Assembly: GCA_017615655.1 (NCBI GenBank) | Contig: JAFZZS010000005.1 | Coordinates: 80,445 to 144,444, forward strand | Direction: 5' to 3' | Origin: Alphaproteobacteria bacterium | GTDB taxonomy: Bacteria > Pseudomonadota > Alphaproteobacteria > Rs-D84 | Length of the DNA stretch: 64,000 nucleotides | Shown here: piece by piece, positions 10,498 to 27,456 of the stretch | Layout: every line of letters begins with the position of its first letter | Numbering within the stretch: position 1 is the first letter of the stretch | Notes under the pieces: generated by a model | What the model saw: the letters and a program-made list of their open reading frames with translations, nothing else | What the model was told of the DNA's origin: nothing | The model's database searches: none | Program-made: the position numbers and the translations under genes

Positions 10498-12096
10498 TTA
10501 TTTAACTTTGCGCAGTTTTTTACGTATTTTGGGTGCAACGCTTAGTCCATCTGATGATAATTCTATGGCGCGTATATATGCCTCACTAGCCATTTTTTTA
10601 TCACCATTCCTTGCATATGCATCACCTAAGTGTTCAAATAAAGATGAACAACTATTTGCGGTGCGCCCTACCCTTGTCAATATGTCCAGTGCGGCATCAT
10701 TTCCTTCGCGTTCTGATACTACAAACGCAAGTGTATCCCATGCAACAATATCTGTTGGATCGTGTTTTACCATTGTCATCGCATAATCATATGCATTTTC
10801 AATTTCACGTTTTTGAATTGTCCAAATACGTGCCTGAATAGTAAGAATTTCAGAGTCTGTTTTAGAAGATTTTGCAGCCTCGTGAATATCGGACTGTGCG
10901 CGGTTTAGATCATCAAAAAGCAAATAAACCAATGCGCGTCTTTTAAGTAGATATATACGTCCTGAATCCGACAATGCCGGGTTTTTTAATGCATTATGTA
11001 ATACACGTAATGCGGCACTTTTGTCACCTTTCCCGGTATAAATTGCGACTAATTTATTAATTGCCGGTATGAACAATGGTTGTTTTTCAAGAATATTTTT
11101 TAATGCATCCACAGAATCAGATTCATCTGCTGCATGCATTTGCGCAAACAGAAAAAACGGGTTGCTCTGACTAAGATTTTCAAAATGTAAAGTCCCATTT
11201 CTGCCCGTATTAGAAAAAAACTGTCCCATATAGTAATTTATACTATCATTGAACCAGGGACTGTTATCAGTAATAATTTGTGCGAAACGTAACATCAATA
11301 CTGATAAGTCAGAAAAAAGCATAACTTTTGTATGAGATACACTTTGTATCAAATCAAAAGCAAGTGCATTCTGGGGACCAGAAAATGTTTTCCAATCAGG
11401 AAAATCATCATAACTTGTCATAAACATTCCACCGGCATTTGATGTAAAATCTTTACGCAACAATTCCGCCAAGTCGGTAAAATTATGCGATTTGTAAAAT
11501 GACATTATATAGGTGTAGTCATTTATATTCATAAATTCACTTTGAACTTTTTCAAATTCCTTGGTAGCGCGCTGTATATCCCCTGTTTCAGCGTAAATTT
11601 GTCCACGAATAAAAGATTTCCACGAAGAATTAGAATCTAATGAATCAATATATTTCAAGGTTTCTGTTACGCGTTTTTTTGCGATTCCAGACCATATACG
11701 AAACGGTGCGTATAATGCGGATTTATCACTGTTATGACGATTATACAGTGCATCCCACTTAGAATTTTTAACCAAATATGCGTCATAAATGATACGTGAT
11801 GCAGCATCAGTTTCTTTTGCTAAATTTTCTGGATTATCTGGCATAACACCGTTTAAAAATTGAGCCAGATAGTATGTTCTGCGAGGTGTTTTATAAGATA
11901 CATCAGAAAACTGACTGGCAAAATTTGATGCAGATTCAAAATCATTAACATATATAGCGTGTTGTGATGCAAGAAACGCCCCATATTTTGTTGTAATATC
12001 ATCCGGTTCTATTTTGACTGGTATTGGGCGTGTAAGCGTCCACATACCCGCAAAAATGACAACAAAAACAAAAAAGTAAAATAACGTTTTTTTCAT
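10498..12096 (-). CDS. TPR-repeat exported/membrane-anchored protein
   Basis: N-terminal hydrophobic segment; C-terminal TPR with alpha-type EHLGDAYARNG motif. Confidence 0.7.
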   Translation of the reverse strand: MKKTLFYFFVFVVIFAGMWTLTRPIPVKIEPDDITTKYGAFLASQHAIYVNDFESASNFASQFSDVSYKTPRRTYYLAQFLNGVMPDNPENLAKETDAASRIIYDAYLVKNSKWDALYNRHNSDKSALYAPFRIWSGIAKKRVTETLKYIDSLDSNSSWKSFIRGQIYAETGDIQRATKEFEKVQSEFMNINDYTYIMSFYKSHNFTDLAELLRKDFTSNAGGMFMTSYDDFPDWKTFSGPQNALAFDLIQSVSHTKVMLFSDLSVLMLRFAQIITDNSPWFNDSINYYMGQFFSNTGRNGTLHFENLSQSNPFFLFAQMHAADESDSVDALKNILEKQPLFIPAINKLVAIYTGKGDKSAALRVLHNALKNPALSDSGRIYLLKRRALVYLLFDDLNRAQSDIHEAAKSSKTDSEILTIQARIWTIQKREIENAYDYAMTMVKHDPTDIVAWDTLAFVVSEREGNDAALDILTRVGRTANSCSSLFEHLGDAYARNGDKKMASEAYIRAIELSSDGLSVAPKIRKKLRKVK

Positions 12097-12121
12097 GGTG
12101 AAATTATGCTACAATAATAAT

Positions 12122-12706
12122 ATGAATAGTAAAGAAAAATTTATACGTTATGCGGACTTGTTGCGAGAATGGTCGCAAAGAATGAATCTTGTTGCGCCAA
12201 GTACATTGGCTGACATAGAAACACGTCATTTTGCCGATTCTGCACAATTGGCAGAGATTTTACCAAAAGATGTTAGCGTCATAGATTTTGGCAGTGGTGC
12301 GGGTTTTCCAGGGGTTGTGCTTGCCATCTTGGGATGGAATGTAACCTGTATAGAATCCATCGGCAAAAAAGCACTTTTTCTTAATGAGTTAAAGAAAAGC
12401 CTCGCACTTGATAATTTAATAATTTATCATGGTAGAGTAGAAGATTTTTTACCGGCATTTTTTATAAAAAACAAAGAAAAAGCCGGTAAATTTTATTCGG
12501 GTTTTGTGATTACAGCACGTGCGTTTGCGCCATTAATTAAAATTTTAGACTATGTTCGAGATATAAATTGCCGGCTTTTTTTGCTAAAAGGCCGGGAAAT
12601 TGAAAAAGAAATAGATGTTGCAAAACGCAAATACAAATTTGATTATCAACTTGTTCCGTCAAAGACCGGTGATGGTTTTATAATAATCGTTGATTACAAG
12701 CATTAA
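12122..12706 (+). CDS. rsmG: 16S rRNA m7G527 methyltransferase RsmG (GidB)
   Basis: MNLVA, RHFADS, DFGSGAGFPG, ITARAFA, LKG. Start placed at MNSKEK. Confidence 0.95.
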   Translation: MNSKEKFIRYADLLREWSQRMNLVAPSTLADIETRHFADSAQLAEILPKDVSVIDFGSGAGFPGVVLAILGWNVTCIESIGKKALFLNELKKSLALDNLIIYHGRVEDFLPAFFIKNKEKAGKFYSGFVITARAFAPLIKILDYVRDINCRLFLLKGREIEKEIDVAKRKYKFDYQLVPSKTGDGFIIIVDYKH

Positions 12707-12790
12707 TTTCATATGAAACAAGGTGTAACTTACTAAAATTACGTGTTTTTGTCCCTTTTTCTGTGTTACGGTTTAATTTCGTGTGAAATA
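12705..12790. promoter_or_regulatory. Two degenerate parS-like palindromes (TTTCATATGAAA, TTTCGTGTGAAA)
   Basis: 12/16 and 11/16 matches to TGTTTCACGTGAAACA, in the rsmG-parA intergenic region. Confidence 0.4.
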
Positions 12791-12896
12791 AAATATAATA
12801 TTTTGATATTAGTGATTTTTTGTATTTTTAAAATTTATAACTTGACCCTTGTGTTTATTTCGTTGTATGTTTACTTTAACAAAAGGAAGGTTTGTT

Positions 12897-13670
12897 ATGA
12901 CGGAAATAATCGCTTTTGCAAATCAAAAAGGTGGTGTAGGTAAAACAACAACGGCTATAAACCTTGGATCGTCACTTGCAGCAATTAAAAAACGGGTTTT
13001 GTTAATAGACTTAGATTCACAGGGTAATGCTGGGACTGGGCTTGGGTTTATACGTTCTTCGCATTCACAAAGTGTTTACGGCGTATTGATGGGGACCTCA
13101 ACAGCGGCAGAAAACATACTGTCAACGGCGGTTCCTGGACTACATATACTGCCATCTACCCAGGCTTTATCTGGTGCAGCGGTTGAATTATTAGATATGG
13201 AAAATAAAGAATATCGTTTGCGCGATGCGTTGGAACCAATTATGTCACATTATGATTATATTTTGCTGGATTGCCCCCCTGCCCTTGATTATGTAACACT
13301 TAATGCGTTAACTACGGCAAATCATGTTATTATACCCCTACAATGTGAATTTTTTTCGTTAGAAGGCGTTTTACACCTTGTAAACAGTATTAAAGGAGTA
13401 CGTCAAAAATGGAATCCGACACTTGATGTTCTGGGGGTTTTGTTGACAATGTATGATCGGCGATATGCCATGACGCGTGAGGTTGAGGAAAATGTTCGTG
13501 CTACATTTGGTGACAAGGTTTTTAAAACGGTGATACCCAGAAATGTACGAGTAGCCGAGGCGCCAAGTCATGGCAAACCGGCGTTATTTTATGATTTTAA
13601 TTCAACGGGTGCGCAGGCATATTTACGTGTTGCAACCGAAGTTGTTCAAAAATTAGAGAAGGGGAAATAG
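12897..13670 (+). CDS. parA: Chromosome partitioning ATPase ParA
   Basis: NQKGGVGKTTT, DLDSQGN, DCPP, PRNVRVAEAPSHG. RBS AAGGAAGG before ATG 12897. Confidence 0.97.
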   Translation: MTEIIAFANQKGGVGKTTTAINLGSSLAAIKKRVLLIDLDSQGNAGTGLGFIRSSHSQSVYGVLMGTSTAAENILSTAVPGLHILPSTQALSGAAVELLDMENKEYRLRDALEPIMSHYDYILLDCPPALDYVTLNALTTANHVIIPLQCEFFSLEGVLHLVNSIKGVRQKWNPTLDVLGVLLTMYDRRYAMTREVEENVRATFGDKVFKTVIPRNVRVAEAPSHGKPALFYDFNSTGAQAYLRVATEVVQKLEKGK

Positions 13671-13671
13671 T

Positions 13672-14553
13672 ATGTCAAGATTTGGATTAGGACGAAATTT
13701 AGACGATTTACAGAATGAAATTGGGGTTGCCCCAGATATTTCAATTTTATCGGGAACAGAACGCGTTGTTGTTCGACAAATACCGCTTGTTCAAATAGGT
13801 ATAAATCCTGATCAGCCACGTAAAACATTTGTGCAGGCAGATTTAGAAGATTTAGCGGCGTCTATTCGCGAAAAGGGTGTTTTAACACCGATTTTATTAC
13901 GACCAGTCAAGGGCAGGGCGTACAGCTATGAAATCGTTGCAGGTGAACGTCGTTTTCGTGCTAGTAAAATGGCGGGTTTAAATGAGATTCCTGCATTTGT
14001 TAAGAATTTGGCTGATGACAATGCAATGGAAATAGCGCTTATTGAAAATGTGCAACGTGAAAATTTGAACCCCATAGAAGAATCTGCAGGCTATGTAAAT
14101 TTGATGAACAAGTGCAAATATACACTGCAAGATGTTGCACGTTTGATTGGTAAATCTGAAAGTTACATAAGAAATTCGATTCGTTTGAATGGGTTACCGG
14201 CATCTGTTAAGAAAATGGTAGAGCAGGGTGAACTTTCCGCATCGCATGCACGTGCAATCGCAGTTGCAGAAAACCCCGAACAATTAGCGCAAGAAATTCT
14301 TACAAAGAAAATGACTGTCGCAGAGACCGAAATGCGCGTAAAAAAAGTTGCTCGTTCCACCAATACTCGTAAATTCACTGACAAGACAATGGATGCTAAA
14401 ACTGTTCGCGAATTAATTGGGCGTGCTGAACGCGCATTATCTGCAGCGGTAAGAATAACAGAACGTCGTGGTGGTGCGGGGATTATAACAATATCATTTA
14501 ATACCCGTAATCAATTAAATGAAATAATTGACAAAATCGCCGGCAAAAAATGA
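13672..14553 (+). CDS. parB: Chromosome partitioning protein ParB
   Basis: NPDQPRK, GERRFRA (CTP motif), ENVQRENL, HTH. Confidence 0.96.
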   Translation: MSRFGLGRNLDDLQNEIGVAPDISILSGTERVVVRQIPLVQIGINPDQPRKTFVQADLEDLAASIREKGVLTPILLRPVKGRAYSYEIVAGERRFRASKMAGLNEIPAFVKNLADDNAMEIALIENVQRENLNPIEESAGYVNLMNKCKYTLQDVARLIGKSESYIRNSIRLNGLPASVKKMVEQGELSASHARAIAVAENPEQLAQEILTKKMTVAETEMRVKKVARSTNTRKFTDKTMDAKTVRELIGRAERALSAAVRITERRGGAGIITISFNTRNQLNEIIDKIAGKK

Positions 14554-14648: not shown

Positions 14649-14676
14649 AAAACACCGACAGACATCGGTGTTTTTT
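14649..14676 (+). terminator. Intrinsic terminator
   Basis: aaaacaccga-cagaca-tcggtg-T6. Confidence 0.75.
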
Positions 14677-14679
14677 GGT

Positions 14680-14707
14680 AAAAAAAAACGCCCAGACGGG
14701 CGTTTTT
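14680..14707 (-). terminator. Intrinsic terminator for pal (bidirectional)
   Basis: A9-cgccc-agac-gggcg-T5. Confidence 0.8.
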
Positions 14708-14708
14708 A

Positions 14709-15125
14709 TTATTTGACAGTCGTTGTTGCGTTACGATTGAATTTCCAAACATCTTCGCCGGTACCTTTGACCAATGGACGTTCTTTACCATAAGAAATGG
14801 TAGAGATACGTTTTGCATCGATACCTTCATCAACGATAACCTTCTTGGCTGCGTTAGCACGACGTGCACCTAATGCCAAGTTGTATTCTGTAGAACCGCG
14901 TTCGTCGCAGTTACCAGCAATTTGAACTTTGACATCATCGTGTGACTTCATGTACAAAGCCTGACCCAACAAGTTATCACGCGCCGCTTCAGAGATTTCC
15001 GAAGAGTTAAACGCAAAGAAAACGCGTTGGCCGTTCAAATCTTCTGGTTCAACAACACTTGAACCACCACATGCCGCCAGCAATCCAGCAGCACCAGCTA
15101 ATAAAGCAAAGTTTTTTATTTTCAT
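14709..15125 (-). CDS. pal: Peptidoglycan-associated lipoprotein Pal
   Basis: Lipobox LAAC, GNCDERGSTEYNLALGARRA, ISYGKERP, NRNA. Confidence 0.93.
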   Translation of the reverse strand: MKIKNFALLAGAAGLLAACGGSSVVEPEDLNGQRVFFAFNSSEISEAARDNLLGQALYMKSHDDVKVQIAGNCDERGSTEYNLALGARRANAAKKVIVDEGIDAKRISTISYGKERPLVKGTGEDVWKFNRNATTTVK

Positions 15126-26712: not shown

Positions 26713-27456
26713 TTATCTGTGTCGTAATCCCCAGTAATATGCCGTATTGATATATTGGGCGGCACGTTCAATATCAAATTGATTCGTTTCTGGGTTCTTT
26801 AATTTTCCCTCGGCGTCTATCCATGTGGTATAATCAGCAGGCAGTACATAATTTATCTTATCAAGATTATTTGCAATGTTTTCTGGTGATAAACCGCCAC
26901 TGTAACCCATTTTATGTTTGTCCATAACAGGTGCACGCCAACTTTTCGGGCTGATACCGCGACCACCCGATGCATCAAACAATAATGAAAAAGGAACCCC
27001 GGTTTTACTCAGTGCATGAATCCGTTCGCGTTGCGCAGGCGCGTATTGAAATATAAATTCAATGTCTGGGTATGCACGAATAATATCTGCAACTTTTTGC
27101 GCATAGAAACGGTATTTATTGCTGCCACCGTTGATGTTTATTTGAATCCGACCAATTACATGTTTGCCATTGTCGCGTTTCAAATCAATCATACGCTTTA
27201 TTTCATATGGAATTATCCCGTTACAAATTTCTGTGCGCCATTCCGAATTAACGTGCATTGCAAGATTTATGTTATTTACACGTGATGCATGCAAAAGCGT
27301 ATCAAACCAAACATATCGTGGCATATGTGCAGAAAATTTAGTTGGATGTGCCTGAATTGCGAATTCTGCCATTGGGTACTGTTTACCAAGGTTGATAATG
27401 TCATCTATGGTATTATATTCACGCATATCGCTGCAGGTTATTTTTTCTAAAATCAT
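26713..27456 (-). CDS. Stand-alone TrpF/PRAI-like TIM-barrel protein
   Basis: LFDASGGRG, GYSGGLSPENI, WIDAEGKLK..FD motifs. Confidence 0.7.
   Translation of the reverse strand: MILEKITCSDMREYNTIDDIINLGKQYPMAEFAIQAHPTKFSAHMPRYVWFDTLLHASRVNNINLAMHVNSEWRTEICNGIIPYEIKRMIDLKRDNGKHVIGRIQININGGSNKYRFYAQKVADIIRAYPDIEFIFQYAPAQRERIHALSKTGVPFSLLFDASGGRGISPKSWRAPVMDKHKMGYSGGLSPENIANNLDKINYVLPADYTTWIDAEGKLKNPETNQFDIERAAQYINTAYYWGLRHR

Follow-up and report, generated by a model that had tools for sequence, protein, structure and literature searches.

A chromosomal ParB with altered parS-contact residues and a putative variant centromere in Enterousia-type Alphaproteobacteria

Introduction

The chromosomal centromere parS is among the most conserved protein-binding sites in bacteria, and the pair formed by ParB and its relative Noc serves as a model of evolving DNA-binding specificity. 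ParB-family proteins that read palindromes other than canonical parS are also known, such as Vibrio cholerae ParB2 with parS2, those of the secondary replicons of Burkholderia and the RepB proteins of repABC systems. The present work concerns a parB gene and the short palindromes beside it in a 64,000-nucleotide stretch of an uncultured alphaproteobacterium (assembly GCA_017615655.1, contig JAFZZS010000005.1, positions 80,445 to 144,444), which is called the window hereafter and in whose own numbering all coordinates of this locus are given. Its ParB and the related proteins of a large clade have lost residues that contact parS elsewhere, and the palindromes near their genes appear to be a correspondingly altered parS.

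The contacts between ParB and parS are known in detail from Caulobacter, in which R173 hydrogen-bonds guanine 1 of parS and Q162 is among the listed parS-contacting residues (Jalal et al., 2020, PMC7383237). In the deep mutational scan of the same study, every parS-binding variant had R173; position 201 tolerated C, S or T, position 179 accepted all residues but P, D and E, and position 184 accepted any residue. R173 and G201 were called absolutely conserved in extant ParB orthologues, and Q173 of Noc was found to pair with adenine 1 (Jalal et al., 2020, PMC7383237). The high conservation of chromosomal parS is likewise stressed in a review (PMC7022226). A 2026 Caulobacter preprint on the substrate specificity of ParB is concerned with the N-terminus, not with natural variation in the DNA-binding helices. 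In the literature, no prior description was found of the site sequences reported here, of the specificity or co-evolution of this ParB or of a non-canonical parS of such a kind, and no report was found of a primary chromosomal ParB lineage in which the centromere and the residue that reads it have both changed.

DNA-contact residues of the window ParB

The segment at 14125–14250 lies inside an open reading frame (ORF) of 293 amino acids (aa) at 13672–14553 on the plus strand and translates to ...LQDVARLIGKSESYIRNSIRLNGLPASVKKMVEQGELSASHARA. The closest structure in the PDB is that of Caulobacter crescentus ParB, 6t1f (phmmer, E-value 8.6e-55), with an alignment that is gap-free across the DNA-binding region, where the helix-turn-helix (HTH) of the window protein, igksesyirnsirlnglp...gelsasharaia, faces igksrshvantmrllalp...geltagharaia of 6t1f. 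ParB residues are given in Caulobacter numbering, counted from R173 in this alignment. The HTH and the helix that follows it (14125–14253, plus strand) thereby carry L162 (codon 14125–14127), E173 (14158–14160), R177 (14170–14172), S179, G184 and S201 (14242–14244), together with the retained parS-contact residues G170, K171, S172, N178 and R204. The contacts Q162, R173 and G201 are all substituted in the window protein, and these three of the eight parS-contacting residues of Caulobacter are replaced throughout the clade, Q162 by L, M or I, R173 by E (or D, A, V or I) and G201 by S.

A single-sequence AlphaFold model, which is poor overall (predicted local distance difference test score of 52) and was taken solely for the helix boundaries of the DNA-binding domain, predicts helices at 152–159 and 163–174. 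In the model numbering, E163 (equivalent to 173) begins the recognition helix and R167 (equivalent to 177) stands one turn further.

Distribution of the residues among ParBs

Nearly all of the 120 closest database homologues (74–100% identity) read GKSESYI[RK]N..RL..LP...SASHAR across the same region. In an exhaustive search of 1.84 billion cluster representatives (50% identity), of which the best 150 matches were compared, only the six nearest relatives (46–73% identity) were without R173, and R or K at 177 occurred only in five of these six, those with an intact HTH; the remaining ParBs had R173 (143 of 151 aligned rows), A, T, S or G at 177 and mostly G at 201. A non-redundant set was then compared column by column, comprising 110 clade loci and 87 loci with ordinary ParBs. 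Scans of genomes and metagenomes had contributed loci from metagenome-assembled genomes (MAGs) of rumen, horse, chicken, rabbit, mouse, human gut and termite gut, many labelled Candidatus Enterousia; the metagenome scan yielded 16 loci. Residue 173 is R in all 87 other ParBs and never in the clade, which has E in 90 loci, D in 8, A in 6, V in 5 and I in 1. Similarly, residue 177 is R (95) or K (15) in the clade and T (44), A (34) or S (9) elsewhere, while residue 201 is S in 108 and G in 1 of the 109 readable clade loci and G in 85 of the 87 others. Q162 is replaced by L, M or I throughout the clade, and positions 179 and 184 are free to vary in clade and non-clade proteins alike. The HTH varies less inside the clade than it does in other ParBs, with K171, S172, S174, N178 and R181 invariant and Y175 and R204 nearly so. 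The residue pattern is not an assembly or sequencing quirk, because nearly all of the closest homologues share it and all 110 clade loci lack R173, and the clade is an exception to the published rule, because the residues R173 and G201, described as invariant, are replaced. The host group of this ParB is Candidatus Enterousia and related uncultured gut Alphaproteobacteria.

A first-pass annotation of this DNA had described the change as R-T-A-G to E-S-G-S at positions 173, 179, 184 and 201, with a new arginine four residues after the first of these, and had quoted a Caulobacter sequence. The quoted sequence is correct, the ungapped alignment to 6t1f bears out E, S, G and S as well as R177, and the CTP-binding motif GERRFRA, said to be intact, is present at 13942–13962. 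The extra arginine is meaningful too, since a basic residue at 177 is confined to the clade and its identity follows the outer base of the site. The four-residue framing holds in part: 173 and 201 are diagnostic, but 179 and 184 are not, and the third changed contact, Q162 (L here), had been overlooked. S201 is moreover a small polar residue, with which parS was still bound in the published mutational scan (PMC7383237). Judged by the aligned proteins, the diagnostic changes are Q162L/M, R173E, A/T177R/K and G201S, with 179 and 184 uninformative.

Three loci in the collection are unusual in other ways. The MAG SRR8387716_bin.101 (locus L022, 9–449) has a parB with in-frame stops in the HTH (KS*SYI*S), the mark of a pseudogene or else of faulty assembly, and it was dropped as an outgroup for this reason. 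Two bins labelled Bacteroides fragilis (L207) and Bacteroidales (L233) hold clade-type parB loci with variant sites, most likely through contamination by an Enterousia-like contig.

Palindromes near parAB

The loci of the clade share a palindrome family, RTTTCAYRTGAAAY, mostly in the form ATTTCATATGAAAT and with the consensus TWATTTCATATGAAATWA, which would be the parS of the clade, standing where other bacteria have TGTTTCACGTGAAACA. The latter is the perfect canonical parS. Both DNA sites named in the first-pass annotation exist and lie in the spacer between rsmG and parA. Putative site 1, AATTTCATATGAAACA (12705–12720), matches RTTTCAYRTGAAAY exactly and overlaps the stop codon of rsmG; putative site 2, AATTTCGTGTGAAATA (12775–12790), has one mismatch to the family pattern, a G for A at position 6 of one half-site. 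Site 1 is the sole exact RTTTCAYRTGAAAY match in the 64 kb (0.0 expected in shuffles), and its orthologue is present in nearly all related loci; the position-6 G of site 2 recurs at the orthologous place in three of them (L017, L138 and L141).

Each clade locus ascertained by protein has one to four RTTTCAYRTGAAAY palindromes near parAB. The usual arrangement is two in the rsmG–parA spacer. In several loci the distal one is instead found upstream of rsmG, which adds about 1 kb to its distance from parB, and a termite-gut MAG (L121) has four palindromes across 4.8 kb, including one downstream of parB. In the 30 clade loci found by protein alone (501 kb) there are 58 palindromes, nearly all in the rsmG–parA region, whereas by our own estimate about 0.1 matches to the degenerate 14-mer would be expected by chance in this length. 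Among the controls found in the same way, 37 of 71 loci hold 89 sites, many at the same distance upstream of parB (about 1 kb) as the clade sites. In these protein-ascertained loci, half-site position 1 is A in 76% and G in 22% of the clade half-sites against G in 90% of the controls, and position 7 is T in 74% and C in 22% against C in 91%. The variant agrees with the parS of other bacteria at 12 of 16 bases, in being a palindrome and in where it lies, and it keeps TTTCA..TGAAA. It differs by two transitions per half-site, G1 to A and C7 to T, with TA mostly replacing CG at the centre, and the ancestral base is still present in 21–32% of the clade half-sites when all loci are counted. The changed position 1 is the base read by the changed residue 173.

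Canonical sites are distributed in the opposite manner. No perfect canonical TGTTTCACGTGAAACA 16-mer occurs in the 1.19 Mb of clade loci around parB, which contain one canonical 14-mer core and 198 sites of the variant family; the 0.87 Mb of R173 loci contain 87 perfect canonical 16-mers and no ATTTCAYRTGAAAT. In the 64-kb window, canonical parS, TGTTNCACGTGAAACA, was not found with up to two mismatches, and the roughly 6 kb added by extending the window outward held no further sites. A scan by DNA pattern that was neutral between the two site types separated the loci in the same way, the variant sites accompanying ParBs without R173 and the canonical ones accompanying ParBs that have it. The inference of the first-pass annotation that this ParB reads a non-canonical centromere is strongly supported by these comparisons.

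One further near-site in the window was set aside. The sequence ATTTCATATGGAAT at 27200–27213, one mismatch from the family, is probably a coding coincidence within the minus-strand coding sequence 26713–27456 (codons IPYEIK); it recurs in the orthologous gene of L007 and not in L008 or L015, and about 0.4 one-mismatch matches are expected by chance.

Other loci showed site arrangements of their own. Dense clusters of canonical parS were seen in three MAGs: eight sites recur about every 46 bp in one of Lachnospiraceae (L096, 4577–4916), six recur about every 49 bp in one of Paceibacterota (L198, 2463–2714), and six are more loosely spread across about 1.2 kb in one of Patescibacteria (L221, 6285–7457). 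One clade member is a circular chromosome of 958,618 bp (L251, OZ007020.1), of which one 8-kb tile was covered.

Residue 177 and the outer base of the site

Covariation in related genomes, which the first-pass annotation had proposed to look for, is present within the clade between residue 177 and the base at position 1. G occupies this position in 39 of 60 half-sites of the K177 loci against 49 of 350 of the R177 loci. K177 forms six groups on a neighbour-joining tree, and in every one of them G makes up more of the position-1 bases than in the closest relatives with R177. Residue 173 shows no relation to base 1, as E, D, V and A all accompany A-rich sites. It is residue 177, not 173, that is proposed as the new reader of the outer base, because 177 tracks base 1 while 173 does not; the association of K and R with G and A is good but not conclusive support for this proposal.

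Two loci resemble steps along such a change. A member with E173 and K177 (L113, CALXNF010000006.1) has a canonical 14-mer core, AGTTTCACGTGAAACT (core GTTTCACGTGAAAC), about 2.3 kb upstream of the parB HTH, which suggests that K177 can replace R173 at guanine 1. The ParB of L103 (JAVBPX010000005.1, 6001–6873) has I173, K177, G201 and A202, with TAGAAR instead of SASHAR, and its locus contains two sites with the canonical CACGTG centre and mixed A and G outer bases; it is apparently an intermediate lineage. As a single case, L103 hints that the central change from CG to TA accompanies G201S.

Proposed mechanism

The reading that best fits these observations, to which we give a probability of roughly 80%, is that the outer-base contact of this ParB has moved from residue 173 to residue 177 and that its centromere has changed by two transitions per half-site. 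ParB dimers would nucleate on the RTTTCAYRTGAAAY palindromes and load as CTP clamps, and the loaded protein would, by analogy with other bacteria, drive ParA-dependent segregation of the origin. In this scheme, the hydrogen bond between R173 and guanine 1 would have been given up and the outer base would now be read by residue 177, with a preference for G where this is K and for A where it is R, while G201S and Q162L would accompany the central change from CG to TA. The preference would have moved towards A1 and T7 and would still tolerate G1 and C7. It may be speculated that E173 pairs with R177 or K177 (i, i+4) or faces the adenine.

The specificity is probably shifted and somewhat relaxed, accepting a purine at position 1 and a pyrimidine at position 7, rather than switched outright, since G1 and C7 are kept by between a fifth and a third of the half-sites, and the site itself looks like a shifted, partly relaxed parS. 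The proposal of a possible third specificity class, made in the first-pass annotation, goes too far: the site has undergone two transitions per half-site, ancestral bases survive and a K177 member has a canonical 14-mer core. The term is also too strong because the ParB family at large includes many further specificities, among them those of plasmids and secondary replicons.

Gene order, protein architecture and flanking elements

The parB gene adjoins a gene for a Walker-type ParA in the order rsmG–parA–parB, all on the plus strand. The first gene of the cluster, rsmG (12095–12706), encodes the 16S rRNA m7G527 methyltransferase (TIGR00138, 116 bits against a cut-off of 99.5), and parA (12897–13670) encodes the partition ATPase (Pfam AAA_31, 202 bits, plus CbiA). 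The start of parA is taken as the ATG at 12897 (MTEIIA), which is conserved in all related loci and preceded by the ribosome-binding site AAGGAAGG. The TTG at 12849, the start of the longest ORF, was rejected on account of this conservation, and parA may be 16 codons too long in automatic start calls. A consensus scan placed a promoter-like element for parAB, TTGACC-18-TATGTT, at 12842–12871 on the plus strand, and its CTTGACC box is kept at the same place in most related loci.

The ParB itself (TIGR00180, 168 bits) has the domains ParB_N (111.5 bits against a Pfam cut-off of 26.3), HTH_ParB (93 bits) and ParB_C, the dimerisation domain, which passes marginally (25.0 bits against 23.8). Its N-terminal motif GLGRNL (13684–13701) aligns with rGLGRgL of Caulobacter ParB; a GLGR-type N-terminal motif is the ParA-activating peptide in characterised ParBs. 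The GERRFRA motif is CTP-binding box II (residues 91–97, aligned with GERRWRA of 6t1f), and box III is ENVQRENL (14044–14067, plus strand). By its architecture and context, as read from the sequence, the product of 13672–14553 is a complete chromosomal ParB (Spo0J) of the type Ia ParABS kind in a standard operon. It lacks two traits by which such proteins are commonly defined, the conserved contacts R173 and G201 (together with Q162) and a canonical parS close to the par operon. A tblastn search found no second ParB in the 64-kb window. Between parB and a convergent ORF of 138 aa (14709–15125), whose translated start is a lipoprotein-like signal, there are two terminator-like hairpins, one per strand, at 14649–14707, a pair that resembles a bidirectional terminator.

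The palindromes of the clade are also accompanied by a conserved flank. The consensus of 98 sites is the site followed by TAA-N4-TTGAT-W, about 8 nt and T5, a module of about 45 nt that accompanies nearly every site in two groups of loci (L001–L031 and L103–L125); the pattern of site plus flank occurs at 67 clade sites and at 3 sites in non-clade loci. At site 2 it spans 12796–12821 and is formed by TAATATTTTGATA (12796–12808) and a T-run (12816–12821). On the minus strand, the flank reads as an A-tract followed by a motif that agrees with the IHF consensus WATCAANNNNTTR, as a consensus match only; a promoter or a hairpin did not fit. A regular-expression search of the 64-kb window found no HU or IHF proteins.

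Alternative explanations

The association of an altered ParB with an altered site could also have arisen passively, if AT-biased mutation eroded the centromere, the tolerance of ParB was always broad and the changes at 162, 173, 177 and 201 were neutral or otherwise used, so that nothing was rewired. Both site changes are indeed G:C to A:T transitions with the ancestral bases partly retained, residue 173 tolerates E, D, A, V and I in the clade as would be expected of a residue that reads nothing, and SAR11-type loci combine a retained R173 with A or T at position 1. AT-richness alone is not the explanation, however, because R173 genomes of 26–33% GC (L033, L046, L053, L077, L204 and L243) retain perfect canonical parS, whereas the clade loci have 37–54% GC. 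R or K at 177, S201 and L or M at 162 are almost fixed in the 110 clade loci and absent from the 87 other ParBs, which argues for selection over drift. Furthermore, K177 and R177 track G and A at position 1, and the published scan recovered no parS-binding variant without R173 (PMC7383237), so that erosion of the site under a broadly tolerant ParB is unlikely. Quite improbable is that the palindromes are operators of another regulator, or autoregulatory sites of the parAB promoter, with the true centromere elsewhere and perhaps canonical. This reading draws on the position of both sites in most loci, in the rsmG–parA spacer and 50–130 bp upstream of the promoter-like element, and on the one or two sites seen per locus in a scan confined to par loci. 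The sites are, however, not tied to the promoter, because some lie upstream of rsmG and the four of L121 are spread over 4.8 kb with one downstream of parB; they also match the parS of other bacteria in 12 of 16 bases, layout and location, co-occur exclusively with the clade type of ParB and covary with residue 177. Neither the near-canonical parS sought in the window, nor a perfect one in the clade DNA, nor a second ParB in the window was found for such a centromere. A decaying ParABS system in a clade of reduced genomes, in which ParB has no sequence-specific nucleation and the sites are relics, is hardly credible at all: the loss of an arginine described as invariant, the apparently small genomes (such as the 958,618-bp chromosome) and the in-frame stops of L022 would agree with it, but the HTH is more conserved in the clade than in other ParBs, the protein has preserved all three of its domains together with the motifs for CTP and ParA, and both the sequence and the placement of the sites are maintained among ParBs that have diverged to about 50% identity.

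Several points weigh against the relocation of the outer-base contact to residue 177. The putative parS is known from sequence comparison in uncultured organisms, and the structural role given to residue 177 rests on the helix periodicity of a predicted model. The association between type of ParB and type of site has a single evolutionary origin and is one event despite the many loci, and the neighbour-joining tree was built from ParB itself. The loci L150–L269 were found by a DNA pattern that requires a site, and the scan covered 64 kb of this genome and 3–21 kb of the others, so distant canonical sites or a second ParB are possible. The rule linking residue 177 to base 1 has exceptions, two loci with R177 and mostly G (L003 and L138) and two with K177 and mostly A (L139 and L234). 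Finally, G1 can be lost while R173 stays, as in the loci L035 (Pelagibacteraceae) and L060 (MarineAlpha5), which retain R173 and G201 and have A or T in place of G1; drift of the site may have come first and the change of the protein after it. The paired TTTCACGTGAAA cores of these loci (L035, 4860–5060, both inside rsmG; L060, 2470–2680) may represent a separate, milder parS variant of streamlined marine Alphaproteobacteria.

Significance

In this clade, a DNA-binding protein and its putative site offer an example from nature of joint change. The exception spans more than 100 genomes at species level, includes lineages that look intermediate and shows, inside the clade, a correlation of R and K at 177 with A and G, so that the order and effect of the substitutions can be tested directly with a handful of proteins and oligonucleotides. 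Software for origins and centromeres that relies on canonical parS will miss the genomes of this clade. A bolder proposal, held tentatively and at somewhat short of even odds, is that the Enterousia-type ParB and ATTTCATATGAAAT form a naturally evolved pair orthogonal to canonical ParB/parS, in which the basic reader has moved by one helical turn from 173 to 177 and the choice of R or K sets the outer base as A or G. If true, ParB-family specificity would have been rewritten in nature by a second route in addition to that of Noc, here in a primary chromosomal orthologue, and L103 and the K177 lineages with near-canonical sites would be living intermediates of this route. If the pair does not cross-react with the canonical one, it would be useful for multicolour locus labelling.

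Comparison with known systems

The window ParB has the three-domain architecture of canonical ParB/Spo0J (Caulobacter 6T1F/6S6H, Thermus Spo0J 1VZ0 and the proteins of Myxococcus, Bacillus and Helicobacter), with which it also has in common the GERRxRA and ENxxRxxL CTP boxes, the N-terminal GLGR and the rsmG–parA–parB context. It differs from the canonical proteins, whose parS is TGTTNCACGTGAAACA, in the replacement of Q162, R173 and G201 and the gain of a basic residue at 177, and its putative site differs in having A for G at position 1 and mostly TA for CG at the centre.

The second natural comparison is Noc, the nucleoid occlusion protein of Bacillus subtilis, with its Noc-binding site (NBS), TATTTCCCGGGAAATA. 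Noc is a ParB paralogue in which changes at positions 173 and 201 altered the specificity, and there too R173 was lost (Q in Noc) and the site has A1. Unlike the Q-K-K-R of Noc, the residues here are E, R177 and S with no lysines at 179 and 184, and position 6 of the site stays A while the centre changes; Noc is a paralogue of Firmicutes, and the present protein is an alphaproteobacterial orthologue linked to parA. The lowest E-value for the window ParB (2.3e-60) comes from the NCBIfam model for Noc, TIGR04285, with a score of 204 bits that is far below the cut-off of 315. Noc identity was rejected on this score, on the residues E-S-G-S and on the lack of an NBS, no NBS-like site with up to three mismatches being found in the 64-kb window. 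The match to TIGR04285 is a possible source of misannotation for the clade.

The conserved flank invites a comparison with the P1 plasmid, whose parS carries an IHF site; a centromere site accompanied by an IHF-type bending site would be common to both systems. In contrast to P1, the IHF-like motif here is known from its consensus match alone, and chromosomal parS sites are not known to require IHF. Non-canonical palindromes are also read by KorB of RK2 at OB and by the ParBs of multipartite genomes and plasmids. The pairs of secondary replicons and plasmids are paralogous and much more divergent (KorB, E-value 1e-14), whereas in the clade described here it is the primary chromosomal orthologue that has changed.

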